Below, piece by piece: positions 1,776-44,162 of a stretch of 64,000 nt of DNA. Position numbers and translations under genes: made by a program. Within the stretch, counting starts at the first letter, position 1. Every line of letters begins with the position of its first letter. The notes below the pieces were generated by a model. The model was not told where the DNA came from, did no database searches, and worked only from the letters and a program-made list of their open reading frames with translations. The DNA comes from Rhodospirillaceae bacterium (GTDB lineage Bacteria; Pseudomonadota; Alphaproteobacteria; Rhodospirillales; Casp-alpha2): NCBI GenBank assembly GCA_002686255.1, contig NZAZ01000108.1, positions 3,336 through 67,335 of the forward strand, read 5' to 3'.

Positions 1776-2747
1776 TCAGTAAAGTTTCCCGAGGTCCATG
1801 CCCGCGTACATGCCGGCGACTTCTTCTTCGTAGCCGTTGAACATCAGGGTCGGGCGCTTCAGGAAATCGCCGATGCGCCGTTCCTTGGCCTGGCTCCATC
1901 GCGGGTGGTTCACGCTTGGGTTGACGTTGGAATAAAAACCGTATTCGCGGGGCGACGCCACATTCCAGGACGTCGGCGGCATATCGGGCTGGAAAGTCAT
2001 CCGGACGATCGACTTGATGCCCTTGAATCCGTATTTCCAAGGCACCACAAGACGGAACGGCGCGCCGTTCTGGTTCGGCATCACCTCGCCGTAAAGACCC
2101 ACCGCCATGATGGTCAGCGGGTTCATGGCCTCGTCGATGCGAAGCCCTTCCTTGTAGGGCCATTTCAGGACCGGGCGTTTTTGTCCCCGCATCTGTTCGG
2201 GGTCCAGCAGCGTCTCGAAGGCAACGTACTTGGCGTCCGATTTAAGGCCGACGCGCTTGATGATGTCGCCGAGGGGAATGCCGACCCAGGGAATGACCAT
2301 CGACCACGCCTCGACGCAGCGCATCCGGTAGACGCGCTCTTCCAACTGGTGCGGCTTGAGGAAGTCCTCCAGGTCATAGACCCCTGGTTTCTCGACGGCG
2401 CCGTCGATGGTCAGGCTCCAGGGCCTGGTCTTGAAGTCCTGGGAATATTCCGCCGGATCGGTCTTGGCGGCGCCGAATTCATAGAAGTTATTGTACTCGG
2501 TGATCGGGCCGTAATCGGTCAGCTCCTCGCCCAGGGCTTCCTGGGTCCACTTGCTTTTCTGAACGCCGGAAAATTTGACCCTGGGGTTCCCCTTGGCGGC
2601 GAAAACCGGCGCCGCGATGGTCCCGAACGCCGCCCCGGCGCCGGCCACGGCCGCCGTCTTCAGGAAACGCCGGCGGTTCATGTAGAGCGTCTTGGACGTG
2701 ATCTCGGACGGTTTGACGTCGGAAGCCTTGGAAAATTTAACAAGCAT
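1776..2747 (-). CDS. msrP: Protein-methionine-sulfoxide reductase catalytic Mo-pterin subunit MsrP (YedY family)
   Basis: 323 aa. Twin-arginine signal [19 protein letters not shown]. Sulfite-oxidase-family core ([19 protein letters not shown]). 33 bp upstream of msrQ. Confidence 0.9.
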
Positions 2748-3002
2748 GACGGTGTTTATACGCTCCGGTTTTCAATATCGGGCAGGCGGGCAGGCGAAAG
2801 TTCCCATAAGATGTGTGACCTCGCCGGGCGATTACAAGACCCCGTTTGCATACCCCGCCAGACCGGAGCCTGTCACTTGAACCTGGATCACATTTCAGAG
2901 AGCCAATATTCAAAAATACCTTATTTCTTGAGGCTTTTTAGGGGTTTCGCTGTTTCCGGGGCCGGCAATCGGATATAGGTAATTCGTTATAGGGTATCGT
3001 TA

Positions 3003-3671
3003 ATGAGAGTTCTTTATCACCTCTGGTTATCCCCCGATTGCCGAAAGGTAAGGGTCGCGCTTCTGGAAAAGGGGCTCGATTTCGAACTCCGGGCCGAAAA
3101 TATCTGGGAGCGGCGCGACGACTTCCTGGCACTCAACCCCGCGGGCGACGTTCCGGTCCTGGTCGAATCGGACGGCTCGGCCCTTTCCGGGAGCAACGCC
3201 ATCTGCGAGTTCCTGGACGAAGTCCACCCGGATCCGCCCCTGATCGGCCGCCAGGCCCTTGGGCGGGCCGAGGTGCGCCGCCTGGTCCATTGGTTCGACG
3301 GTAAATTCGACCGCGAAGTGACGGAAAACCTGGTCGGAGAAAAAATGATGAAGCGGCTGTTGGGCCAGGGCGCCCCGAATTCAAAGGCCGTCCGCGCCGG
3401 GCACGCCAACATTCATCATCATCTGGATTACATCGGGTATCTGAACGAACGCCGGACGTGGCTGGCCGGCGATACGTTTTCGCTGGCCGATATTACGGCG
3501 GCGGCGCATTTGTCGACCATCGATTACCTGGGCGACGTGCCTTGGAAGGAACACGAGGAGGCCAAGGACTGGTACGCCAGGGTCAAGTCCCGGCCGAGCT
3601 TCCGGGCCTTGTTGGAAGACAACGTCCCCGGCGCGCCGCCGCAACGGCACTACGCCAACCTGGATTTCTGA
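3003..3671 (+). CDS. Glutathione S-transferase family protein
   Basis: 222 aa. Thioredoxin-like N-domain (LWLSPDCRKVRVALLEKGL, AGDVPVLV) followed by a helical GST C-domain. Confidence 0.8.
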   Translation: MRVLYHLWLSPDCRKVRVALLEKGLDFELRAENIWERRDDFLALNPAGDVPVLVESDGSALSGSNAICEFLDEVHPDPPLIGRQALGRAEVRRLVHWFDGKFDREVTENLVGEKMMKRLLGQGAPNSKAVRAGHANIHHHLDYIGYLNERRTWLAGDTFSLADITAAAHLSTIDYLGDVPWKEHEEAKDWYARVKSRPSFRALLEDNVPGAPPQRHYANLDF

Positions 3672-3733
3672 TGATGTCCGAACGCCTTTTCGCCACCCGC
3701 CCTTCGCGGCCGGGGGACGTTTTCTCTATCGGG

Positions 3734-5440
3734 CTAGTCCGGTTTGACGTCCATTTTTTCGAGATTCCGCCTGGCCGCGGCGGCGGCCCGGCTTTTTGGC
3801 GCCAGGCGAAGAACGCGAAGCCAGTCCTGCCGGGCGCCGTCGTTGTCTTGGCGAAGACGTCTAAGAATCCCCCGCTCCAAAAGCCCCTCGGCATGAGTGG
3901 GGGCCAGGGCCAGCGCACGCTCCACGTCGGCAAGGGCGGGTTCCAGCTTATCGAGAAACCGGTATGTGGCGGCGCGGAAGACATAGGCGTCGGCGCGGCG
4001 GTCTTCGTGGGCGATGGCATGGTTCAGGTCTTCGAGGGCGCCCTTAAAATCCTTCAACTCCGCCCGCGCCTGGGCGCGGTCGACAAAAAGGGCGCTGTCT
4101 TCGGGAATCAGCTTCAAGGCCGCCGTCAGCACCGCCTCGGCCCGGGCGGCCTGTCCCGCCAGAAGCCAGGCCTGGGCCGCGTGGGCCAGGAGCCCGGCCT
4201 TGACCGACGGATTTTGCTTCGCCTTGCCGGCAAGCGTTTCCATTCGTCCCGCCGCGTCGGCGTATTGCCCAAGACCGATCAACGCCACCGCGATGCAATG
4301 CTGGGCGGCGTCGCCGCCGCCCAGGTCGCGCCAGTTGAGGGCCGTTTCGAAGGCTTCCTCGGGCGACTTTTTGGCCAGCGCCATGCACGCTTTGTACTGA
4401 TGGGCGTGGTCGATTTCCTTGGCTTCGGCGGGACTCCAGGGGAGAAAAAGCGAAACAATAAACGCCGCAAGAAAAGCCAGAACCTCGACGTTCTTGAGGT
4501 TCTTCGGGCGGTTGCCGGAAAGCACATCCCGGACGCCGTCGAAGGTATCGCGCTCGCCCCGCTCGAAGGCTTCCTTCGTGTACCAGGCCAGATGCGGGGT
4601 CAGGATCACATTGTCCCGGCCGAGCAGCGGATAACCGGGCGCCAGGGGTTCGTCGGCGAAAACGTCGAAGGCGGCGCCGGCGATCCCGTTTTCGTCGAGG
4701 ACCCGGATCAACGCCCCTTCGTCGATGATGGCGCCGCGGGAAACGTCGATCAGAAACGCCGTTTCCTTCATCCGCTTCAATTCCGCCTCGCCGATCAGAC
4801 CCGTGGTTTCCGGAGTCAGCACGCAGTGGATGGAAACGAAATCGGACCGTTCCAGCAATTCGTCCAATCCGCAGGATTGAACTCCATACTCGGCGAAGGT
4901 CGTGGAGCCCACGTAAGGATCGATGGCGAGCCGGGTCATCGAAAACCCTTCGCCGCGGCGCGCCATGCACCGGCCGATGCGGCCGAAACCGACAAGACCA
5001 ATAGTCTTGCCCGAAAGGTCGACGCCCAGGTATTCCGGCGCCGGCCAGGCCCAGGCGTTTTCCCGCATCACCCGGTCGAGAACCGGAATTCGCCGGGCCA
5101 GGGCGATCAACAGGGCAAAGGCGTGGTCGGCCACGGTGTCCGATCCGTAATCGGGACAGTTGACCACCATCACGCCCCGCCTGCTTGCCGCTTCGATGTC
5201 GATGGCATCGGTGCCGACGCCGTATTTGACGATGCCTTTCAGGTTTTTCGCCGCCTCGATTACTTTTTCGGTAACACCGGTGTAGCACGTGAGGATGATA
5301 TTGGCGTCGGCGGCTTCAAGGGCCAAGGCATCCTCGTCGGTGCTTTGCGTCGTCACCACGTCGGCGACGGCCTCCAACTCATCCAGGTATTGCTCGATGA
5401 TGAAAAGTTCAGCGTCGGTGCGGAGAATCTTGGCTTTCAA
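3734..5440 (-). CDS. D-isomer-specific 2-hydroxyacid dehydrogenase fused through a hydrophobic segment to a TPR-like domain
   Basis: 568-aa ORF. The first ~310 aa carry the NAD Rossmann motif GLVGFGRIGR and the VSRGAIIDE...LTPHLAW catalytic region. Then comes VLAFLAAFIVSLFLPWSPAEA and ~230 aa of Ala/Leu-rich TPR-like repeats. No stop or ATG/GTG/TTG lies at the junction. Confidence 0.7.
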   Translation of the reverse strand: MKAKILRTDAELFIIEQYLDELEAVADVVTTQSTDEDALALEAADANIILTCYTGVTEKVIEAAKNLKGIVKYGVGTDAIDIEAASRRGVMVVNCPDYGSDTVADHAFALLIALARRIPVLDRVMRENAWAWPAPEYLGVDLSGKTIGLVGFGRIGRCMARRGEGFSMTRLAIDPYVGSTTFAEYGVQSCGLDELLERSDFVSIHCVLTPETTGLIGEAELKRMKETAFLIDVSRGAIIDEGALIRVLDENGIAGAAFDVFADEPLAPGYPLLGRDNVILTPHLAWYTKEAFERGERDTFDGVRDVLSGNRPKNLKNVEVLAFLAAFIVSLFLPWSPAEAKEIDHAHQYKACMALAKKSPEEAFETALNWRDLGGGDAAQHCIAVALIGLGQYADAAGRMETLAGKAKQNPSVKAGLLAHAAQAWLLAGQAARAEAVLTAALKLIPEDSALFVDRAQARAELKDFKGALEDLNHAIAHEDRRADAYVFRAATYRFLDKLEPALADVERALALAPTHAEGLLERGILRRLRQDNDGARQDWLRVLRLAPKSRAAAAARRNLEKMDVKPD

Positions 5441-7221: not shown

Positions 7222-8427
7222 ATGAACGAAGGCCCCAACAATACCACCATCCCGGCCCCTGAACAGTCCGCCGCCGGTATCGGCTCGGCGACGATCCTCC
7301 AGGTTCTCCCGGCCATGGGCCAAGGCGGCGGGGTTGAGCGCGGCACCGTCGAAATCGCCCAGGCCATCGCCGCCGAAGGAGGCCGGGCGCTCGTGGTTTC
7401 GTCCGGCGGTGCCCGAGAGCATGAGATCAAACGGGTTAGGGGCGAACACCTGAACTTGCCCGTGCATTCCAAAAACCCGTTGACCATATACGCCAACATC
7501 AACCGTTTGGCCCGGATCATCGAAACCGAGGCCGTCGACATCGTCCATGCCCGGTCCCGGGCCCCGGCCTGGAGCGCCTTTTACGCCGCCAAGCGCACGG
7601 GCATACCCTACATGACCACCTTTCACGGCACCTATTCGGCGGGCAACCCGCTCAAGCGTAAATACAATTCAATCATGACCCGGGGCGAACGGGTGATCGC
7701 CATCTCGCGTTTCATCGGCGGCCATGTCCATCAGAACTATGGCGTTCCCCCGAATAAGATCCGCATCATCCACCGGGGCGTGAACCTGGAACGATTCGAT
7801 CCCGCCAAGGTCACCGCCGAAAGAATCGCCGCCCTGGCCGCCAACTGGCGGCTGGATGACGAGTTGCCGGTGATCATGCTGCCGGGGCGCCTGACGCGCT
7901 GGAAAGGGCAGGCGATGTTTATCGAGGCCATCGGCAAACTGGCACGCCGCGATATCCGTTGCCTGGTGGTCGGCGGCGACCAGGGGCGGGCGAAATACCG
8001 CCAGGAACTGGAAAACCTGGTCCACAAGAACGGATTGGGGGAAATCGTCCGCCTTGTCGATCATTGCGACGATATGCCGGCCGCCTTCATGCTGACCGAT
8101 GTTGTGGTGTCCGCTTCCACCGATCCGGAGGCTTTCGGCCGCATCGTCGTCGAGGCCCAGGCTCTGGGCCGTCCCGTTGTCGCCAGCGACCACGGCGGCG
8201 CCCGGGAGACGATTGTCGAGGGCGAAACCGGATGGCTGTTTCCGCCGGGCGACATCGAGGCCCTGACGTCGGTGCTCAACAAAGCCCTGAGCCTGGACCG
8301 GGAAACCCGTATCCAGTTGGCCCAGAAAGCAATCATCAACGTGCGCGAAAATTTCTCGCAGCAGGCCATGTGCCGCAAGACGTTGGATGTCTACGAAGAA
8401 ATCCTGAAATCGAAGGCCGGCGGATAA
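7222..8427 (+). CDS. Glycosyltransferase family 4 (GT-B, group 1)
   Basis: 401 aa. C-terminal EAFGRIVVEAQALGRPVV (E-x7-E) sugar-donor motif. Confidence 0.85.
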   Translation: MNEGPNNTTIPAPEQSAAGIGSATILQVLPAMGQGGGVERGTVEIAQAIAAEGGRALVVSSGGAREHEIKRVRGEHLNLPVHSKNPLTIYANINRLARIIETEAVDIVHARSRAPAWSAFYAAKRTGIPYMTTFHGTYSAGNPLKRKYNSIMTRGERVIAISRFIGGHVHQNYGVPPNKIRIIHRGVNLERFDPAKVTAERIAALAANWRLDDELPVIMLPGRLTRWKGQAMFIEAIGKLARRDIRCLVVGGDQGRAKYRQELENLVHKNGLGEIVRLVDHCDDMPAAFMLTDVVVSASTDPEAFGRIVVEAQALGRPVVASDHGGARETIVEGETGWLFPPGDIEALTSVLNKALSLDRETRIQLAQKAIINVRENFSQQAMCRKTLDVYEEILKSKAGG

Positions 8428-9360
8428 ATGGCCCTGCCGCCCCATGACGCCGTTCTGGTCATAAAATTAGGGGCGCTCGGCGATTTCGTTCAGGCCCTGG
8501 GGCCTTTCGCCGCCATCCGCCGCCATCACGCCGATGCCAGGGTGACGCTGCTGACGACGGCGCCTTATGAGGAATTGGCCAAGGCATCGGGGTTTTTCGA
8601 CGACATCTGGACCGGCGGCCGGCCGGCGACGGCGGACATCGGCGGCTGGCTGGAACTGCGCCGCCGCCTTCGCGGCGGGGGGTTCGGGCGGGTCTATGAT
8701 CTGCAGACCTCGGACCGAAGCTCTTTTTATTACCGCCTTTTCTGGCCCGGCCCGGCGCCGGAATGGTCGGGCACCGCCAGGGGCTGTTCGCACCCCCACG
8801 CCAATCCCGACCGGGATTTCATGCATACGATGGACCGCCAGGCCGAACAACTGTCGATGGCGGGCATAGCCGAAGTGCCGGTGCCCGACCCCTCGTGGGC
8901 CGAGGCCGATATTTCGCGTTTTTCCCTTTCCGGACGGTTCGCCCTGCTGGCGCCCGGCGGCGCCTTGCACCGGCCAGGCAAACGCTGGCCGGCGGGAAAC
9001 TTCGGGCAATTGGCCAAGACCTTGATGGACCAAGGCCTGCTTCCGGTGCTTGTGGGCTCGGCCTCCGAGGCCCCGTTAATGGCGGAAATCAAGGCCCAGT
9101 GCGAAGAAGCCCGGGACTTGTCCGGGCAAACGGGCCTGCTTGACCTGGTGGCGCTGGGACGCGGCGCCGTGGCGTCCGTCGGCAACGATACCGGACCGAT
9201 GCACCTGTTTTCGGCCACCGGATGCAGGACGGTAGTGCTGTTTTCCCATGATTCCGACCCCGCGCTTTGCGGTCAGCGCGGGGCGGCGGTGACGATCATC
9301 CGGCGTCAGCCTCTCGATGCTATTTCCGTCGCCGAAGTCGTGGACGGCATGGGCCTATGA
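8428..9360 (+). CDS. Glycosyltransferase family 9 (LPS heptosyltransferase-like)
   Basis: 310 aa, beginning immediately after the GT4 stop. KLGALGDFV and GNDTGPMHL motifs. Confidence 0.8.
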   Translation: MALPPHDAVLVIKLGALGDFVQALGPFAAIRRHHADARVTLLTTAPYEELAKASGFFDDIWTGGRPATADIGGWLELRRRLRGGGFGRVYDLQTSDRSSFYYRLFWPGPAPEWSGTARGCSHPHANPDRDFMHTMDRQAEQLSMAGIAEVPVPDPSWAEADISRFSLSGRFALLAPGGALHRPGKRWPAGNFGQLAKTLMDQGLLPVLVGSASEAPLMAEIKAQCEEARDLSGQTGLLDLVALGRGAVASVGNDTGPMHLFSATGCRTVVLFSHDSDPALCGQRGAAVTIIRRQPLDAISVAEVVDGMGL

Positions 9361-9457
9361 TGCCGCCGGTGAAGACATGGCGTCGATTCCTTGACAGAGG
9401 ACCCAATCGCCCGCATTTTCGGCCCCGGTTTCTGATGCCCTTGAACGCGTGATTCGA

Positions 9458-11377
9458 ATGGTCGCCATTACCCTTCCCGACGGCAGCAAACGCGAATTCG
9501 ACAAGCCCGTTTCCGGCGCCGACGTGGCCGCCGACATCGGCCCCGGATTGGCCAAGGCGGCATTGGCCGTCCGCGTCGGCGGCGAGATGAAGGACCTGAG
9601 CACGGTCATCGACGCTGGCGCCGAAATCGCCATCGTTACGGCCAAGGACGAGGACGCGTTGGAGTTGCTGCGTCACGATTGCGCCCACGTCATGGCCGAG
9701 GCGGTGAAGGAGCTTTTTCCCGAGACCCAGGTCACCATCGGTCCCAACATCGAGAACGGTTTTTATTACGACTTCGCCCGTGACGAGCCGTTCGTTCCCG
9801 AAGACCTGGAAAAGATCGAAGCCCGCATGCATGAAATCGTCAAACGGGACGAGCCGGTCACATGCGAAGTCTGGGACCGGGCCGAGGCGATCAAGTTCTT
9901 CAAAGACAAAGGCGAACATTATAAAGCCGAAATCATCGATGGAATCCCCGGCGATGAGGAGGTCTCGCTCTATCGTCAGGGCGACTTCATTGACCTTTGC
10001 CGGGGGCCGCATTTGCCGTCGACGGGGAAGCTGGGAAAAGCCTTCAAGCTGACCAAGCTGGCCGGGGCCTATTGGCGGGGCGATTCCAAGAACGAGATGC
10101 TGCAGCGGATTTACGGCACCTGCTGGGCCGAGGAAAAGCAGCTGAAGGCCTATCTGCATATGCTGGAAGAGGCGGAAAAGCGCGACCACCGGTGGCTGGG
10201 CCGCGAAATGAGCCTTTTTCACTTACAAGACATCGCCGCCGGCGCCGTGTTCTGGCATCCCAAGGGATGGACCCTTTACCGCACGCTCCGGACCTACATG
10301 CGCGAACGCCTCAAGGCCGAGGGTTACATCGAGGTCAACACGCCGCAGATGGTCGACCGCGTCCTGTGGGAAGCGTCCGGGCACTGGGAAAAATTCCGCG
10401 AAAACATGTTCACGTCCGATGTCGAGGACAAAGTGTTGGCGCTGAAACCCATGAACTGCCCCTGTCACGTACAGATCTTCAAACAGGGCATCACCAGTTA
10501 CCGGGACCTTCCAATCCGTATGGCCGAGTTCGGGGCGTGCCACCGGAACGAGCCCTCCGGTGCGTTGCACGGCCTGATGCGGGTCCGCGCCTTCGTCCAG
10601 GACGACGCTCATATCTTCTGCACCGAAGACCAGATCACATCGGAAACCCAGGCGTTCTGTACGCTTCTGCGGAGCGTCTACGAGGACTTGGGGTTCGAGG
10701 ACGTGATCGTGAAATTTTCCGACCGGCCCGAGGTCCGCGCCGGCAGCGACGAAACCTGGGACAAGGCCGAACGGGCGTTGCAGGACGCAACGGCGGCGAC
10801 GGGGCTGGAAACGGAACTCAATCCGGGCGACGGGACGTTCTACGGGCCGAAGCTGGATTTTGCCCTCCGCGACGCCATCGGCCGCGATTGGCAATGCGGC
10901 ACCCTGCAGGTGGACTTCGTTTTGCCTGAAAGGCTCGATGCCCACTACATCGGCGAGGACGGTGAAAAGCACCGCCCGGTCATGTTGCACCGGGCGATTC
11001 TGGGGTCTTTCGAGCGGTTCTTGGGCATCCTCATCGAACACTACGGGGGGAAATTCCCGTTGTGGCTGGCGCCGCTTCAGGTCGTTGTCGCCACCATCAC
11101 GTCCGAGGCCGACGACTACGCGGCCCAGGTCCATGCGGCTTTATGCGAGGCTGGGCTCAAGGCCGAACTGGATATCCGCAACGAAAAGATCAATTACAAG
11201 ATTCGAGAACACAGCGTCGCCAAGGTCCCGATAATCCTTGTCGTCGGCGCCAAGGAGGCCGCCGACGGCACGGTGGCGATGCGGCGTCTCGGTGGAAAAG
11301 ACCAAGAAAATCTTGCGCTTAAAGAGGCAACCGCTAGACTGCGGGAAGAAGCGGCCGGTCCGTTGGCTAGGACTTGA
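9458..11377 (+). CDS. thrS: Threonine--tRNA ligase
   Basis: TGS-domain start [14 protein letters not shown]. Class II catalytic core (FRGRE-like [23 protein letters not shown]) and anticodon-binding C-terminus. ATG 9458 preferred over in-frame GTG 9449. Confidence 0.95.
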
Positions 11378-24936: not shown

Positions 24937-25659
24937 CTATGCGGCCTTCAATGCCCTTTGCACGCCCTTGATCTGTTTTTCCACGGAAATGTCCTGGATC
25001 GATGTGATTTCCAGGCCCCGGTCCTCGTAGACGTTTTCGTCCGGGTGCCCGGCTTTCCAATCGCTGACGGTCTTATCGCGGGCCTTCAGCAACGTTTCGA
25101 TGTCGGGACGGAAAAGCTGCAGCATCGCCGTGACCCATATATTCACCGGCAGCGATTGAAGGGCTAGATCCATGTCGAAGCGGTCCAGCATCGAAACCAC
25201 CGATTTTGCCTTGTACCAGGTCTCGCCGGTGACCCAGCGGTTGGTGGTGAACAGCCGGATCGGAAACCCCGCCCGGTCCATGGCGATACCGACGAAATGG
25301 GTCAGCTCGTCATTGTCGCCCTCGGGCTTCTCGTAATCGGCGACCTTTGCCGGCTTGACGCTTTTCGGCATGCCCTTGGGCCGGAGGAAGGTATGGAAAT
25401 GCCCGTGTTCGGGGCCGTATTTCTCCGCCCGGCCCTCGGTGGGGTGGGCGTGATAGTAATACTGGGCATGGGTTTCGTGATCGTAAACGTCGCCCGGCGG
25501 ATAATGGTCCCATTCGAAAAATTCGCCGTGGCCTTTCAACACTTCTCCGACCACGTTGGCGTCGTTTTTTCCGAGCAGGCGGTAGCATTCCAGAATCCTG
25601 TCGCCAGCCAGAGCCATCTTGCGGAGCCGGGATTTCGGCAGTTTTTTAAAATCGGTCAT
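24937..25659 (-). CDS. Conserved hypothetical protein, His-rich (HETHAQYYYHAHP...HGHFHTF)
   Basis: 240-aa ORF with protein-like composition. No family assigned from memory. Confidence 0.6.
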   Translation of the reverse strand: MTDFKKLPKSRLRKMALAGDRILECYRLLGKNDANVVGEVLKGHGEFFEWDHYPPGDVYDHETHAQYYYHAHPTEGRAEKYGPEHGHFHTFLRPKGMPKSVKPAKVADYEKPEGDNDELTHFVGIAMDRAGFPIRLFTTNRWVTGETWYKAKSVVSMLDRFDMDLALQSLPVNIWVTAMLQLFRPDIETLLKARDKTVSDWKAGHPDENVYEDRGLEITSIQDISVEKQIKGVQRALKAA

Positions 25660-25740
25660 GGACTGTCACGCCATTTCTCTCAAACCGGACGTTGCCGACA
25701 AACCCGACGCCGGTTGCATTTTATATTTTATGGCGCCTTA

Positions 25741-25778
25741 AAGAAAACGCCGCGATGAGGCAAAAGCCACTCGCGGCG
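25741..25778 (-). terminator. Rho-independent terminator after the small CNPC-repeat gene
   Basis: CGCCGCGA (25748-25755) pairs with TCGCGGCG (25771-25778). A T-run (TTTTCTT) follows on the minus strand. Confidence 0.6.
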
Positions 25779-25810
25779 TAGCGATTTATAAATGGCGAAC
25801 TATGCGGTTG

Positions 25811-26083
25811 TTATTTCTTTTTGCCCGCGCAGGGATTGCAAGGATTGCAGCCATTCTTCTTGGCGGCGCAAGGATTGCAAGGATTGTAGCCCTTTTTCGC
25901 GGCGCAAGGATTACACGGATTGCAGCCCTTCTTGGCGGCGCAAGGATTGCACGGCTTGCATTGCGCGAGTTCGATGATGTCCTGGGAGGTCACTGATTTG
26001 GCAACCGCATCCGGCAGAACGCTAAACGAACCGGCGCCGGCCAAAGCGGCCACGCCAATCGCGGTAACTGTCTTTTTCAACAT
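25811..26083 (-). CDS. Small secreted CNPCNPC-repeat protein
   Basis: 90 aa. Sec signal MLKKTVTAIGVAALAGAGSFSVLPDAVA. Then [54 protein letters not shown]. Confidence 0.75.
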   Translation of the reverse strand: MLKKTVTAIGVAALAGAGSFSVLPDAVAKSVTSQDIIELAQCKPCNPCAAKKGCNPCNPCAAKKGYNPCNPCAAKKNGCNPCNPCAGKKK

Positions 26084-26251
26084 TTTTTGCTTCTCCTGTT
26101 CAGAGTTATCTGATCGACGCCGGTATCCGGGTTCCCCCCAATACCTGCTTAAGCAGTCGGTCTTTCATAGCTCGATTGGCCTGCCGTGGGCCAATAACGC
26201 CCTATCAAAATTACGTGAACCTAATATTCAATATAATATTAGAAATACGAA

Positions 26252-26277
26252 ACGGCGGCAGGAAACCTGCCGCCGTT
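26252..26277 (-). terminator. Rho-independent terminator after the CNPC-P460 gene
   Basis: Perfect 11-bp stem ACGGCGGCAGG / CCTGCCGCCGT with a 4-nt loop. TTCGTATTTCT follows on the minus strand. Confidence 0.6.
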
Positions 26278-26305
26278 CGCGGCCGTCTGCTTTGAAGTCA
26301 TTGGA

Positions 26306-27226
26306 TCAAAACTTTTTCCGGTAATCCTCCGGCACCAAAAAGATATGGTCCTGTTCGGGAGCCACGCCGGCATGGCATTCGGCGCAGAACTTCATGTTCA
26401 TGCCTTTGCCTTTGGTCATGCCGGCGACCTTGCCGTTGGGCATGACCATGGAATACCGCCAATCCCCGGATTCTTTGTTGAAGCCCTTTTTCATCTTTTC
26501 CATGATGAACAGGGGACCGATACCTAGCTTGCCGTACGGGCGGACGGCGAAGCTGTCCTTGGCCAAGACCGAGCCGAAAGGCAGGGTCCCCGCCTTTTCG
26601 AACTTCTTGTAGCGGTAATTGCCGTGGCTGTTGGCGTAGTTGTTGACGTACCGGCCGCCATGGGTGGCCGACTGATAGGCGGTGGCGTTGACCCTGAGCC
26701 ATCCCGTATAGCCGCTGACCTGCCGGAGGCCGGCCTTGCGATAGGCTTTCTTCATCTCAGACTTCAGGCATATGTAGGCGGCTTCGGCTTCGGCGGCGGA
26801 AATTTCGACGGCCGGACCGGCGGCGCACGGATTACAGGGATTGCAGCTCTTGGCGGCGCAAGGATTGCATGGGTTGCAGGGGCTCTTGGCGGCGCAGGGA
26901 TTGCATGGATTGCAGGGGCTCTTGGCCCCGGCTGCCTGCAGCCGCGGTATTACGCACTTCTTGGAGAACGCGCCCCCCCCGGCTCCACAGGGATTACAGG
27001 GATTGCAGGCTCTTTTTGCCGCGCACGGGTTGCACGGCTTGCATTGGGCAAGCTGAATGAGCCGGGGCTTCGGTTTGGCCACCGGCAAAAGGGTTGGTTG
27101 CTCCGTCCCGGTGTTTGCGGCGTGCGCCGGCGACGCCGGCGACAAGGCGCCTCCGACTACGATTCCGGCCCCGATGAAAGCCGGAATAACCGTGGTCGAC
27201 AGAAGCGTTATTTTGAATGACCTCAC
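26306..27226 (-). CDS. Secreted protein: five CNPCNPC-type repeats fused to a cytochrome P460-family domain
   Basis: 306 aa. Signal peptide ending ASPAHA. Repeats CKPCNPC and 4x CNPCNPC. C-terminal ~170 aa has P460-like features (YANSHG, FPxGS-like [16 protein letters not shown]) and a single heme motif CAECH. Confidence 0.75.
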
Positions 27227-27543
27227 GAATGGTCTCCTGTTCTCAAACGTTTGATAATTGGGTTTCGGGTTATGTTTATTAGGACGCGCTTATCCTGTCA
27301 GAACGCCCCTGAAGCCTCGAATCAAACGTAATCACAGGGTTGTGATGATGAGGCGCGAAGGGTCAGCGCGGGTATACTTCCCGGCTGGTCCGGTGGGATT
27401 GAGGGCAGAAGGCCAGCCATTTTACATCACCGATAAGTGATATACGGTGAATGGTCGCCGGTGGATTTTTCGTGTTACCTATCAGTCTGTTATGAAAAAA
27501 ATTCGAACCGGTCATTTTTTTGACCGACTGAAAGTGAAGCAGG

Positions 27544-27978
27544 ATGAAAAAGATATTAAGCGTAGTGGCGGTTCTGGCTGTTGCCTTTTTCACCGTTCCG
27601 GGCGCCCATGCCGCGGCGACGGGAAAACGGGTCACGGTGACCGGAGAAATCGTCGACACTTGGTGCTACGTCACCGAGATCATGTACGGGCTTGGCACCG
27701 CGCATCATCAATGCGCCGTCTGGTGCGCCGTCGGCGGAATCCCGGTCAGCGTCCTGGGCGAGGACGGCAACGTCTATGTGGTGTTGAAGGTCGAAGGAGA
27801 CGGCACCAACGTCGCCAACCCCCGCATCATCAATATCCAAACCCACAAAGTGACCGTCGACGGCGACCTCTATGAACGTGACGGGGTCAAATACCTGATC
27901 GTCACCCAGGTCGCCGACGATAAGGGCATCGTCAACATGACCCATGAGGAATACGGCATTCAGCCGTTCGGGAAGTAA
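27544..27978 (+). CDS. Secreted hypothetical protein (Cys/His-containing)
   Basis: 144 aa. Signal MKKILSVVAVLAVAFFTVPGAHA. Conserved-looking TWCYV...HHQCAVWCAVGG. Confidence 0.65.
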   Translation: MKKILSVVAVLAVAFFTVPGAHAAATGKRVTVTGEIVDTWCYVTEIMYGLGTAHHQCAVWCAVGGIPVSVLGEDGNVYVVLKVEGDGTNVANPRIINIQTHKVTVDGDLYERDGVKYLIVTQVADDKGIVNMTHEEYGIQPFGK

Positions 27979-27981
27979 GCC

Positions 27982-28500
27982 ATGAAACGTACGTTATCCA
28001 TCCTTTTCACGGCGGTTCTTTTTATCGGTCCCGGTGCGTCCCAGGCGGCGGAAGAATGGGGCATCGACGGAGAAAAGAAGGCCCGCTTCGAAGCCAAGGT
28101 CGTTGACATCCTTTGCGAACTGACGGGCGATTGCCCGGCCGATTGCGGTTCCGGCAAGCGGCAGTTGGGGTTGCTTAGGGACGACGGCACGCTGGTCCTG
28201 GCGGTAAAGAATTTCGATATTTTCGCCGGCGCCGCCGATGACCTGAAAGGTTTCTGCAACAAGAGGATCGTCGCCGACGGATTGCTGATCAACAATCCGA
28301 AGATGCCTTTGTTCGCCCTGCAATTTAAAAAGCTCGCCCCTGACGGCAAGTGGAGCCGCGCCAACCAGTTCGGCAAGGACTGGTCGAAGGCCAACGGCGG
28401 CAAGAAGGCCGGCCAGTGGTTCAAGAACGACCCCAGGATCAAAAAGGTGATCGCCGAGAAAGGCGTGTTCGGCATTCCGGGCCTGAAGCCGAAAGAATAA
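27982..28500 (+). CDS. Secreted hypothetical protein (Cys-containing)
   Basis: 172 aa. Signal MKRTLSILFTAVLFIGPGASQA. ILCELTGDCPADCGSG motif. Starts 3 nt after the previous gene. Confidence 0.65.
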   Translation: MKRTLSILFTAVLFIGPGASQAAEEWGIDGEKKARFEAKVVDILCELTGDCPADCGSGKRQLGLLRDDGTLVLAVKNFDIFAGAADDLKGFCNKRIVADGLLINNPKMPLFALQFKKLAPDGKWSRANQFGKDWSKANGGKKAGQWFKNDPRIKKVIAEKGVFGIPGLKPKE

Positions 28501-28839: not shown

Positions 28840-29853
28840 GTGTCCGTTTCCGATTTCCCCCGCGTTTCCCTGGCCCATACGCCGACCCCGTTGGAGACCA
28901 TGCCCAATCTGACCCGTTTGTTGGGCGGGCCCGATTTGCTGGTCAAGCGCGACGACTGTACCGGCCTGGCCATGGGCGGCAACAAGGCGCGTCAGTTGGA
29001 ATTCTATTTCGGCGAAGCGGTGGCGCAAAAGGCGGACACAGTCATCATCACCGGCGCCATCCAGTCCAACTTCGCGCGCCAGACGGCCGCCGCCGCGGCC
29101 AAGCTTGGTATGGCTTGTCATATCCAGCTTGAACACCGGGTGCCGACGATGGCGCCCGAATACGAAGCGTCCGGCAACGTTCTGCTGGACCGGCTGTTGG
29201 GCGCGGCCATCCATTACTTCCCCGAAGGCGAGGACGAAACCGCCGCCGACAAGGCGTTGGACAATATCGCCGATCAGGTCCGTGCCGAAGGGGGCAACCC
29301 TTATGTCATTCACCTGTTGGCGGATTATCCGCCCCTGGGCGCGCTGGGCTACGTGGTCGGAGCCGGAGAATTCCTCGATCAGGCCGCCGAACGGGGCCTT
29401 GCCATCGATGCCGTGGTGCTGCCGTCCGGCAGCGCCGCCACCCATGCCGGCGTTCTGGTGGGATTGAAAAGCCGCAACAGCGATATCGAGGTTACAGGCG
29501 TTTGCGTCAGGCGAAACAAGGATCAGCAGTTCGAAAGGGTGTTTCGCCAAGCCACCGTCGCCGCCGAGATGGTCGGCTGCCCGGACGCCGTTTCCAAGGA
29601 CGACATCCACGTTACCGACGACTACTTGGGTCCCGGCTACGGCCAATCGACGCCCGAGATGCTGGAGGCGATGACACTGGCGGCCCGCGAAGAAGGGCTG
29701 ATTCTGGACCCGGTCTATACCGGCAAATCCATGGCCGGCCTGATCGGGTTGGTGCGTTCGGGCCGTTTCAAGTCCGGGCAGACCGTTCTTTACCTGCATA
29801 CGGGCGGCACCCCGGCGGTTTTCGGGTATAGCTCGATGTTCGGGGACTTATGA
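28840..29853 (+). CDS. PLP-dependent D-cysteine desulfhydrase / ACC deaminase family protein
   Basis: 337 aa, GTG start. TPLE...LLVKRDDCTGLAMGGNKARQLEF (PLP Lys) and LHTGGTPA C-terminal motif. Confidence 0.85.
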   Translation: MSVSDFPRVSLAHTPTPLETMPNLTRLLGGPDLLVKRDDCTGLAMGGNKARQLEFYFGEAVAQKADTVIITGAIQSNFARQTAAAAAKLGMACHIQLEHRVPTMAPEYEASGNVLLDRLLGAAIHYFPEGEDETAADKALDNIADQVRAEGGNPYVIHLLADYPPLGALGYVVGAGEFLDQAAERGLAIDAVVLPSGSAATHAGVLVGLKSRNSDIEVTGVCVRRNKDQQFERVFRQATVAAEMVGCPDAVSKDDIHVTDDYLGPGYGQSTPEMLEAMTLAAREEGLILDPVYTGKSMAGLIGLVRSGRFKSGQTVLYLHTGGTPAVFGYSSMFGDL

Positions 29854-30209
29854 AATTTCCGCGCACCATCCGGCTCGACATTCACGACGCCAACGCCTTT
29901 CCGCTGGCCGCCGAACCCGAGGAATGGGCGGTGACGGGAACCTTCGCCTTCGCCGACGCCGATCCGGCGGCGATGACGGGCAAGGAACAGTTGGCGTTTA
30001 AAAACGGCTGGCTCGGCACCGAAAACTTCGGCCGGTCGACCTTCGTTCAGGTATCGGTGATCCCGGACGAACAATTCAAAGCCGTGGTGCGAAACCTGGC
30101 GGCCCATCTGCACGAAAACTACGGCGCGCCGGACATGTTGGCCGCCGTCGAAGCGGCCCGCGGCGCGCAGAAAACAGGGGAATTTTCGCGCAAACGGCTC
30201 ATGGTTTAG
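29850..30209 (+). CDS. Left (N-terminal) copy of a split conserved hypothetical gene, with a truncated, replaced C-terminus
   Basis: 119 aa, ATGA-coupled to the PLP gene. Residues ~24-105 are near-identical to ORF 43719-44162. The sequence diverges after AAVEAARG and stops 14 codons later. Confidence 0.6.
   Translation: MKFPRTIRLDIHDANAFPLAAEPEEWAVTGTFAFADADPAAMTGKEQLAFKNGWLGTENFGRSTFVQVSVIPDEQFKAVVRNLAAHLHENYGAPDMLAAVEAARGAQKTGEFSRKRLMV
29919..30165. repeat. 247-bp direct repeat, left copy (partner 43752-43998)
   Basis: Aligned by eye base for base. About 15 mismatches, no indels. Confidence 0.9.
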
Positions 30210-43718: not shown

Positions 43719-44162
43719 ATGGCTTCCTTGACCTGGGTCAACGCCGAGCATGAGGAATGGGCGGTGACGGGAACCTTCACCTTCGCCGACGCCGATCCGG
43801 CGGCGATGACGGGCAAGGGACAGTTGACGTTTAAAAACGGCTGGCTCGGCACCGAAAGCTTCGGCCGGTCGACCTTCGTTCAGGTATCGGTAATCCCGGA
43901 CCAACGATTCGAAGCCGTGGTGCGAAACCTGGCGGCCCAACTTCACCAACGATACGGCGCGCCGGACATGTTGGCCGCCGTCGAAGCGGCCCGCGGCGAA
44001 GCCGAATACGCGGCCGGCCTGTGCGACCATCCCGCCGGCACCTTGCTTGCCATCGAACGGGAATTCACTGAAGACGGCGTGGCCGAAAGGATCCGCGTCA
44101 TCCCGAAAACCGACGCGGGGACGCACGCCCGGATTTGGTCGGTGGAAGAGGATGAGGGATAA
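43719..44162 (+). CDS. Right (C-terminal) copy of the split conserved hypothetical gene, with a replaced N-terminus
   Basis: ATG 43719. Shares the EEWAVTGTF...AAVEAARG core with 29850-30209, then continues EAEYAAGLCDHPAGTLLAIEREF...WSVEEDEG. Confidence 0.6.
   Translation: MASLTWVNAEHEEWAVTGTFTFADADPAAMTGKGQLTFKNGWLGTESFGRSTFVQVSVIPDQRFEAVVRNLAAQLHQRYGAPDMLAAVEAARGEAEYAAGLCDHPAGTLLAIEREFTEDGVAERIRVIPKTDAGTHARIWSVEEDEG
43752..43998. repeat. 247-bp direct repeat, right copy (partner 29919-30165)
   Basis: See the left copy. Confidence 0.9.

Follow-up and report, generated by a model that had tools for sequence, protein, structure and literature searches.

A tandem N-P-C-A-A-(K/R) cysteine repeat on secreted and haem-fused proteins of Proteobacteria, and the gene set that accompanies it

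The window analysed here, a 64,000-nucleotide stretch of contig NZAZ01000108.1 from a Rhodospirillaceae bacterium, encodes two adjacent secreted proteins of 90 and 306 residues that carry tandem arrays of a short cysteine-containing unit, the larger of which continues into a cytochrome P460-type haem domain. The invariant unit in more than 1,700 relatives is N-P-C-A-A-(K/R), and neither this repeat module nor the set of genes that recurs around it matches any described family or system in Pfam, NCBIfam, PDB or the searchable literature. The gene set is widespread and, to judge from sequence and genomic context, from which all assignments of function to the repeat proteins are drawn, most likely serves the handling of reduced sulfur in the periplasm, less likely that of soft metals. 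As to mechanism we favour, tentatively and as something short of probable, a reading in which the arrays act as tandem thiol carrier arms that are loaded or oxidised by the tethered low-potential haem in reduced-sulfur chemistry. The features of the two genes, in window coordinates, are as follows.

26306-27226, minus strand: NPC-repeat/cytochrome P460-type fusion gene, 306 aa, GTG start, stop included (open reading frame, Pfam, gene callers, codon-position substitutions)
27119-27226, minus strand: signal peptide of the large protein, residues 1-36 (predicted)
26987-27043, minus strand: array A, residues 62-80, two units (sequence and 36-bp periodicity)
26939-26962, minus strand: mid-linker KKCVIPRL with Cys91 (family motif S-x-K-C-(V/I)-(V/I)-P-R-L)
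26954-26956 and 26768-26770, minus strand: codons of Cys91 and Cys153 (co-occurring pair)
26825-26914, minus strand: array B, residues 105-134, three CNPCNPC units (sequence and 36-bp periodicity)
26309-26806, minus strand: cytochrome P460/c'-beta-fold domain, residues 141-306 (Pfam, fold model, hhalign)
26558-26560, minus strand: Lys223, family-invariant (hhalign onto Lys70 of N. europaea P460)
26372-26386, minus strand: haem site CAECH, residues 281-285 (sequence)
26250-26278, minus strand: intrinsic terminator after the large gene, stem of 13 pairs in the scan and 15 when folded, then a U-tract (scan and folding)
25811-26083, minus strand: small NPC-repeat gene, 90 aa (open reading frame, independent gene callers, codon-position substitutions)
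26000-26083, minus strand: signal peptide of the small protein, residues 1-28 (predicted)
25814-25960, minus strand: repeat part of the small protein, four units (sequence)
about 25740-25779, minus strand: terminator-like hairpin after the small gene (about 13 paired bases) with UUUUCUUU (scan and folding)

Both genes, first proposed in a sequence-only reading of this stretch, were also found by independent gene callers on identical Tara Oceans contigs, and an AGGAG ribosome-binding site precedes each of them. The Sec signal peptides and shared lead-in described there, the latter being (E/Q) followed by 13 protein letters not shown here, were borne out; predicted cleavage falls between AVA and K in the small protein and between AHA and A in the large one, and neither has a twin-arginine motif. 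The unit counts of four and five likewise hold. After the lead-in IIELAQ the small protein has CKPCNPC, CNPCNPC, the degenerate YNPCNPC and CNPCNPC, joined by AAKK(G/NG) linkers, and its mature form comprises 62 residues with 11 Cys and 11 Lys; the large protein, with the lead-in LIQLAQ, has CKPCNPC and four CNPCNPC units divided between its two arrays. In the DNA the arrays show a 36-bp tandem periodicity with 85-88% matches. The earlier reading had named expression of the antisense ORFs on the plus strand as something that would refute it. Substitutions relative to orthologues (in loci L015, L017 and L086) cluster at the third codon positions of the minus-strand frames, with first-, second- and third-position counts of, for example, 12/6/37 in the small gene and 45/35/113 in the large one, and the plus-strand ORFs are therefore by-products, artefacts of GC-rich repeats. 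Each gene does have its own terminator, a stable hairpin with a U-tract, with folding energies of -27.3 kcal/mol (z = -3.7) after the large gene and -24.7 kcal/mol (z = -2.5) after the small one.

Metatranscriptome contigs cover both genes, and show only that repeat-bearing transcripts or contigs exist, sometimes at depth. These contigs (runs X1-X3 and X6) pile up on the repeat-coding segments at about 25816-25942 and 26832-26958, where word depth in run X6 reaches about 700-1200 with flanks near zero, and many of them contain chimeric joints between the arrays of the small and large genes. Expression level is not readable from this depth, because related repeats multi-map. Separate expression of the small gene at a high level, which had been suggested from its terminator, is weakly indicated.

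Relatives, counted as clusters at 90% identity, number 1,246 for the large protein and 514 for the small one, and keep the motif; an exhaustive HMMER search with the 49-aa repeat part as query gave 152 representative clusters at 50% identity. In the window the unit is 12 aa long (36 bp; 12 protein letters not shown). Judged across the relatives, its C-x2-C-x2-C triplet is an elaboration confined to lineages. G, A, N or Y often replaces the first of its cysteines, and the Cys spacing, expected earlier to be fixed among homologues, varies between lineages from C-x2-C to C-x4-C and C-x5-C. The commonest Cys clusters are CNPC and CNPCNPC, and the commonest linkers AAKKA, AAKNP and AAKKG, while whole lineages have a single Cys per 5-6 residues, as in the (ANPCA)n arrays of Thalassospira lucentensis; a large metagenomic clade with (A-K/R-N-P-C-A)n has one per six. 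Because the triplet is not conserved, a fixed CxxCxxC geometry for a metal or cluster is weakened. What stands of the original description is a secreted, Lys-rich, aromatic-free module, for which a thiol or redox role is best backed by context.

Family means for array composition are C 23%, K 19%, A 19%, P 16% and N 15%, with aromatic residues and His together at 0.5%, and a conserved lead-in, (I/L)-x-L-A-(A/Q)-C, stands ahead of the arrays. Array length is hypervariable: the relative P0002 has 11 units to the window protein's five, at 95% identity in the haem domain, and the large-protein family ranges from 1 to 24 units and from 7 to 62 Cys. The small protein is steady across relatives at about four units and 11-12 Cys. 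No Pfam or NCBIfam model covers the repeat and no publication describing its motif was found in the searchable literature, in agreement with the earlier statement that it has no described function; almost all relatives are either unnamed in databases or called "hypothetical protein" or "cytochrome P460 family protein". The protein P0119 has a precomputed hit to the Pfam entry PF27959.

Two familiar uses of cysteine motifs were considered and set aside. The arrays contain P-C (as N-P-C) and no CP dipeptide, which excludes a Cys-Pro haem regulatory motif. An Fe-S cluster in the arrays, raised by the sequence-only reading, is unlikely and was rejected on three grounds, namely the lack of a twin-arginine motif, the lack of a fourth Cys-Pro ligand (the proteins contain no CxxxCP such as completes the ferredoxin-type [4Fe-4S] motif CxxCxxCxxxCP) and the variable spacing.

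The C-terminal domain of the large protein is a true but divergent cytochrome P460/c'-beta fold, with the single CAECH haem site noted earlier. It matches PF16694 (Cytochrome_P460) over residues 172-296 at 31.6 bits against a cut-off of 27, and most relatives of the large protein carry a precomputed hit to the same model. An AlphaFold model of residues 133-306 is confident, with a predicted local distance difference test score (pLDDT) of 90.9 and a predicted template-modelling score (pTM) of 0.87. When it was compared with PDB by Foldseek, the top 10 matches were all c'-beta or P460 proteins (E = 1.5e-5 to 4.6e-3, TM up to 0.69), among them c'-beta of M. capsulatus and N. europaea and P460 of N. 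europaea and Nitrosomonas sp. AL212, after which E-values rose above 0.2. Sequence searches of PDB, with the full protein and with a profile of 30 C-terminal-domain sequences, missed the P460 family, which was found only by the fold search and hhalign. The haem domain is a distant branch and a new member of this known family. In an hhalign alignment (probability 54%) with N. europaea P460, the sequence of which was confirmed against 2je2, the invariant Lys223 (in SVLAKDSF) falls on the cross-link residue Lys70, a suggestive indication that it occupies the haem cross-link position; the region of the distal base, a distal carboxylate, falls in a gap of the alignment.

Two further cysteines of the large protein go together. 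Cys91, in the linker, and Cys153, a helix residue in a Y-x-C-L motif at the start of the haem domain, are both present in 113 P460 fusions and both missing from 5, with one only in 13, several of which are truncated proteins or cases missed by the pattern search. This co-occurrence points to a likely Cys91-Cys153 disulfide, which would tether array B or close it into a loop. A second P460-type paralogue of 217 aa, free of repeats and without the helix Cys, was seen in locus L008 (5718-6371, minus strand) and also in L030, L033 and L038.

The haem domain in the window is one of two main partners of the repeat. A Pfam scan of 61 of the 152 repeat clusters, those of at least 150 aa, found a SoxA/TsdA cytochrome c domain (PF21342) in 14 of the 61, with a best E-value of 2.4e-12, and Cytochrome P460 in 12; CCP_MauG was hit in 13, over the haem-motif region and probably in the same proteins as the SoxA/TsdA set. 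LysM occurred in three clusters, DUF6789 membrane proteins with the repeats in a loop in two, and Cupin_2, YceI, OmpA and YHS in one each. The best PDB match of a profile of the SoxA/TsdA-like domain is SoxA of Rhodovulum sulfidophilum (1h31_A, E = 1.8e-5), with TsdA weaker. The alignment to 1h31_A places the CxxCH of the fusions on C76xxC79H80 and a family-invariant Cys (in QFCML) on Cys114 of SoxA, the axial haem ligand. These sister fusions thus combine CxxCH with a Cys at the axial position about 40 residues downstream, where the window protein has P460 instead. Of the 80 anchor ORFs fetched by way of the SoxA/TsdA-like domain, 78 carry NPC repeats, and public data hold 408 metagenome loci for the SoxA-type fusion.

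A recurrent neighbour of the repeat genes is a gene of the DUF6969 family, represented in the window as follows.

24937-25659, minus strand: DUF6969 gene, 240 aa, no signal peptide (Pfam, neighbourhoods)

It lies no more than about 2.6 kb from a repeat gene, and mostly directly adjacent, in every repeat-anchored locus examined, these loci being alpha- and gammaproteobacterial with otherwise unrelated flanks. Among 80 DUF6969-anchored loci from species-representative genomes, about 30 contain an ORF with NPC repeats no further than about 2 kb away, and about 20 of those include a P460-type domain. Invariant His, Asp and Glu residues are numerous in DUF6969, its model (pLDDT 89.9, pTM 0.90) finds no match among PDB folds (best E = 0.58), and it may represent a new metal-binding fold; the guess from its HxH motifs that it is a cupin was rejected, as a confident model without a PDB fold match does not fit it.

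Several periplasmic proteins and a transporter complete the set. In 38 of all fetched loci an adjoining gene encodes a periplasmic FGE-sulfatase-like protein, which has a signal peptide and conserves the motif GGSWDD-x-GCG(V/I)CR; 16 of the fetched loci encode a secreted, weakly cupredoxin-like protein (Cupredoxin_1, E = 0.0015) of about 155 aa. In a neighbour census of 37 repeat loci against 50 DUF6969 loci without repeats, the counts of which ignore phylogeny, a YeeE/YedE-family (Sulf_transp) gene was present in 13 of 37 vs 0 of 50, and DUF302, a protein with a signal peptide and a CATCG motif, in 7 of 37 vs 0 of 50. The 80 metagenome loci anchored on the SoxA/TsdA-like domain include 27 long ones of at least 8 kb, and here DUF6969 was found in 17, DUF302 in 16, FGE-like and YeeE-like genes in 10 each, the cupredoxin-like gene in 8 and a second small repeat gene in 13. 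Two gene orders recur: repeat-haem, FGE-like, DUF6969, cupredoxin-like and small repeat gene, with DUF302 convergent; and small repeat gene, repeat-haem, DUF6969, DUF302 and YeeE-like. Rhodaneses are found now and then near repeat loci, and gammaproteobacterial repeat loci contain a pair of extracytoplasmic function (ECF) sigma and anti-sigma factors. A glutathione reductase beside these gammaproteobacterial loci, tried as MerA, is gor (above the NCBIfam cut-off) and probably reflects plain synteny.

Two observations on these neighbours are added here. The mature cupredoxin-like protein starts with (V/I)IELTQTGC in L010 (6452-6940), L011 (7484-7942), L012 (7491-7958) and L005 (6305-6766), which resembles the IIELAQC lead-in of the repeats, either by coincidence or, perhaps, because both kinds of protein share a recognition element at the N-terminus. 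In the cultured strain T. lucentensis Mv1, which has a complete genome, the cluster (L085; NZ_CP191544.1, about 329.9-332.3 kb) consists of a small (ANPCA)n protein (8307-8624, minus strand), an FGE-like gene (8954-9823, plus strand) and DUF6969 (9983-10723, plus strand), and a class I cytochrome c adjoins it.

Where YeeE/YedE proteins have been characterised, they take up thiosulfate or zero-valent sulfur (PMC11073785, PMC10812762). For the P460 fusion the sequence-only reading had proposed delivery or sequestration of a metal, or thiol/NO/NH2OH chemistry. The thiol/redox part is favoured and metal delivery recedes, because the SoxA/TsdA fusion, the YeeE/YedE transporter and DUF302 recur and point to sulfur. 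Carrier arms offer the most economical model, since a single Cys sits in a constant N-P-C-A-A-K setting, the arrays are fused to two unrelated c-haem domains, and a sulfur importer and rhodaneses are found nearby. Each array would act as a multivalent thiol carrier, akin to many SoxY-type carrier cysteines in tandem, the exposed Cys thiolates of which would be oxidised or covalently loaded (as disulfide, persulfide or S-thiosulfonate) at the open, low-potential tethered haem. We infer that one Cys per unit would suffice, as in a carrier arm, and that both fused c-haem domains hold accessible or Cys-ligated low-potential iron. Low potential is a property of His/Cys haems and of P460 haems alike. 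SoxAX couples thiosulfate to the carrier Cys of SoxY and TsdA makes tetrathionate, and to our knowledge the sole chemistry of SoxA/TsdA-type enzymes is the formation of S-S bonds, either with a carrier cysteine or from one thiosulfate to another. The free 62-aa protein would be a diffusible carrier or buffer for the same chemistry. In the fuller gene sets, the YeeE/YedE-type transporter would bring the sulfur product into the cell, with the DUF302, FGE-like and cupredoxin-like proteins working in the periplasm and DUF6969 in the cytoplasm. Capacity would depend on array length, and this would account for the quick expansion and contraction of the arrays. Taken to its full extent, the proposal implies a new class of poly-cysteine carrier, an expandable analogue of the SoxY arm, a P460-type (Lys-cross-linked) cofactor employed for the chemistry of sulfur or selenium in place of nitrogen, and an unrecognised pathway of 5-7 genes (with DUF6969, FGE-like, cupredoxin-like, DUF302 and YeeE-like members) common in Proteobacteria of oxygen-minimum zones and sediments; in this extended form we regard it as doubtful.

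A number of points weigh against carrier arms in sulfur chemistry. No sox, sqr, pdo or tsdA genes were noticed beside the clusters, and we know of P460 cofactors only in N-oxide and hydroxylamine chemistry. The 64-kb window itself has no FGE-like, cupredoxin-like, YeeE-like or DUF302 gene, and DUF6969 is not confined to repeat loci, an example being Azospirillum, where it follows an MlaEFD-like transporter. The loci behind the neighbour statistics are not independent of one another in phylogeny. If the periplasm is oxidising, CxxC pairs may sit there as disulfides only. The composition of the arrays equally fits a metallothionein, and the FGE-like and cupredoxin-like neighbours hint at copper.

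There is a different reading, in which the Cys arrays form a metallothionein-like periplasmic sponge or chaperone that binds Cu(I), Zn, Cd or Hg as thiolate clusters, the CNPC turns being metal knuckles, the small protein a buffer of fixed capacity, and the arrays on haem or cell-wall-binding proteins local traps. The Cys- and Lys-rich composition, nearly devoid of aromatic residues and His, suits this, as do the prevalence of CxxC pairs in most members and the steady size of the small protein, which is near that of a metallothionein domain. FGE is a copper enzyme, and the conserved C-G-(V/I)-C pair of the FGE-like neighbour, the weak cupredoxin likeness of another, the sigma/anti-sigma pair of gammaproteobacterial loci and the rare YHS, LysM and OmpA fusions also speak for it. 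However, Cys spacing is not conserved, whole lineages having a single Cys in every 5-6 residues; the reading leaves unexplained why the repeat is recurrently fused to two unrelated haem domains with open sites and linked to YeeE and DUF302; no cop, cus, czc or mer genes were noticed nearby; and free periplasmic thiols would require protection. We consider a sponge unlikely, though it is the main rival. A role in nitrogen-oxide handling takes its cue from the haem. P460 enzymes oxidise NH2OH and c'-beta proteins bind NO, so that the P460 domain might do either while the thiols trap Fe-NO, HNO or NO+ as S-nitrosothiols or re-reduce the haem, making the protein a periplasmic NO/NH2OH detoxifier in low-oxygen water. 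The conserved Lys at the putative cross-link position, an oxygen-minimum-zone habitat rich in N-oxide turnover and the second, repeat-free P460 paralogue of some clusters are in keeping with it, yet no nir, nor, hao or amo genes were present in any neighbourhood examined, the distal base needed for NH2OH oxidation is not assignable within the alignment gap, and the same repeat and gene set work with a SoxA/TsdA-type haem in place of P460, a haem type for which we know of no N chemistry. This explanation is distinctly improbable.

A further possibility is that N-P-C-A-A-K is a site of modification, for instance by the FGE-like oxidase, Cys being converted to formylglycine that then forms Schiff bases with the adjacent Lys, or by DUF6969 before export, to yield a cross-linked periplasmic matrix or a bufferin-like chelator. 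An invariant short motif round one Cys does resemble an enzyme recognition site; a conserved lead-in stands ahead of the arrays; in most repeat loci with enough flank an FGE-like gene with signal peptide and conserved Cys pair is adjacent; and DUF6969 combines many invariant residues with an unmatched fold. The motif is N-P-C, however, and not the FGE consensus C-x-P-x-R, the FGE-like gene is missing from the window and several other loci, FGE-like and DUF6969 genes are paired without repeats in 14 loci (DUF6969 stands alone in Azospirillum), and no MNIO or radical-SAM maturase lies nearby. We hold such a modification to be the least credible of these explanations and very unlikely.

The set carried by the window is thus a reduced one, namely the P460 fusion, the small repeat protein and DUF6969 on the minus strand, with two secreted Cys-containing proteins on the plus strand. 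The latter, and a palindrome upstream of the fusion gene, are located as follows.

27544-27978, plus strand: 144-aa secreted Cys/His-containing protein, no family match (homologous domain fused to an NPC array in P0384)
27982-28500, plus strand: 172-aa secreted Cys-containing protein, no family match (travels with the 144-aa gene in L015, L017 and L023)
27331-27346, no strand assigned: perfect palindrome ATCACA-N4-TGTGAT, ATCACAGGGTTGTGAT, about 105 bp upstream of the large gene (conservation)

A PDB sequence search with the 144-aa protein gave no match; the occurrence of its domain on an NPC-repeat array in P0384 makes it probable that the protein is part of the repeat system. The closest relatives have an FGE-like gene between the 144-aa gene and the P460 fusion (L015, 2575-3501; L017, 7278-8192; L086, 4732-5643), at the position of which the window has a 317-bp intergenic region (27227-27543), and its absence looks like a lineage-specific loss. 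The core of the palindrome, TCACA-N4-TGTGA, is found exactly once in each of 10 distinct loci and nowhere else in 175 fetched loci; it lies just upstream of the fusion gene in nine of the 10, its relative position in L018 being unsettled, and this conservation marks it as probably a candidate operator. An Rfam scan of 24.5-29 kb had no match, hence no riboswitch, and a sigma-70 promoter scan at the locus found none.

The locus is chromosomal, with no obvious island. The rest of the window is housekeeping (PolA, an MsrPQ-like pair, ThrRS, IF3, L35, L20 and PheST), with a 2-oxoacid:ferredoxin oxidoreductase and a methylmalonyl-CoA mutase also encoded. The locus had no match in the plasmid collection searched; its best genome matches are metagenome-assembled genomes of marine Rhodospirillales or Thalassospiraceae-like bacteria, and the source names of relatives point to oxygen-minimum zones, marine sediment and deep water. 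Two DUF6505 copies lie in the window (29850-30161 and 43743-44153), and DUF6505 recurs with a DegP-like protease near repeat loci in related Rhodospirillales, probably as lineage synteny. The upstream part of the window's contig, fetched as L095, has at 2662-4320 an Oxidored_molyb and Ferric_reduct pair, an MsrPQ-like periplasmic methionine sulfoxide reductase; with a GST, this pair stands about 20 kb from the repeat genes, with no link shown.

Thiol carriers served by a haem would, if the proposal is right, constitute a new bacterial route for capturing or oxidising reduced sulfur in the periplasm, and the first role of a P460-type haem outside hydroxylamine and NO chemistry. As metal binders, the arrays would instead provide the first bacterial metallothionein that is built of repeats and exported by Sec. 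In either case DUF6969, DUF302, the FGE-like clade and the cupredoxin-like family gain a context. Abundant as it is in public data, and with its occurrence in oxygen-minimum zones, deep water and sediments, the family may have a part in the marine cycling of sulfur, nitrogen or trace metals. Its proteins, being small and soluble, lend themselves to experiment, T. lucentensis Mv1 is a cultured carrier suited to genetics, and the conserved operator-like palindrome provides a route to the regulator.

Among known systems, bufferins are Sec-signal RiPP-like (resembling ribosomally synthesised and post-translationally modified peptides) copper chelators made by MNIO enzymes. The likeness lies in small Cys-containing precursors with a Sec signal, encoded in the repeat clusters with uncharacterised enzymes and in some with an ECF sigma/anti-sigma pair; the repeat loci differ in having no DUF692/MNIO, DUF2063 or DoxX and no NCBIfam or Pfam precursor match, and their repeat architecture and haem fusions are unlike those of bufferins. 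With metallothioneins, and with exported copper storage proteins such as Csp1 of methanotrophs, a precedent for a Cys-rich metal store that is exported, the small repeat protein shares small size, richness in Cys and Lys, CxxC motifs and the lack of aromatic residues. Csp1, however, is a folded four-helix bundle, whereas the repeat proteins, unrelated in sequence to either, are Sec-exported tandem repeats with variable Cys spacing and haem fusions. The C-terminal 166 residues of the large protein share with P460 and c'-beta proteins (PF16694; 2je2, 6hih) the fold, one CxxCH near the C-terminus and the aligned Lys, but identity is about 20%, an N-terminal extension of about 100 residues bears two poly-Cys arrays and a Cys-containing linker, and the genes in its context are DUF6969, FGE-like and the like, with no nitrification genes. 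Comparison with SoxAX-SoxYZ and TsdA is of another kind. The repeat proteins and their neighbourhoods have no GGCGG C-terminal motif, SoxZ or SoxX, many carrier cysteines would lie in a low-complexity array where SoxY has one on a folded protein, and the haem in the window is P460-type, so that the resemblance would be functional only. The sister proteins nevertheless carry the repeat on a SoxA/TsdA-type haem domain in which the axial Cys is kept, a sulfur transporter family is encoded nearby, and in both systems, as proposed, a haem would oxidatively load sulfur on an exposed carrier Cys flanked by small residues.

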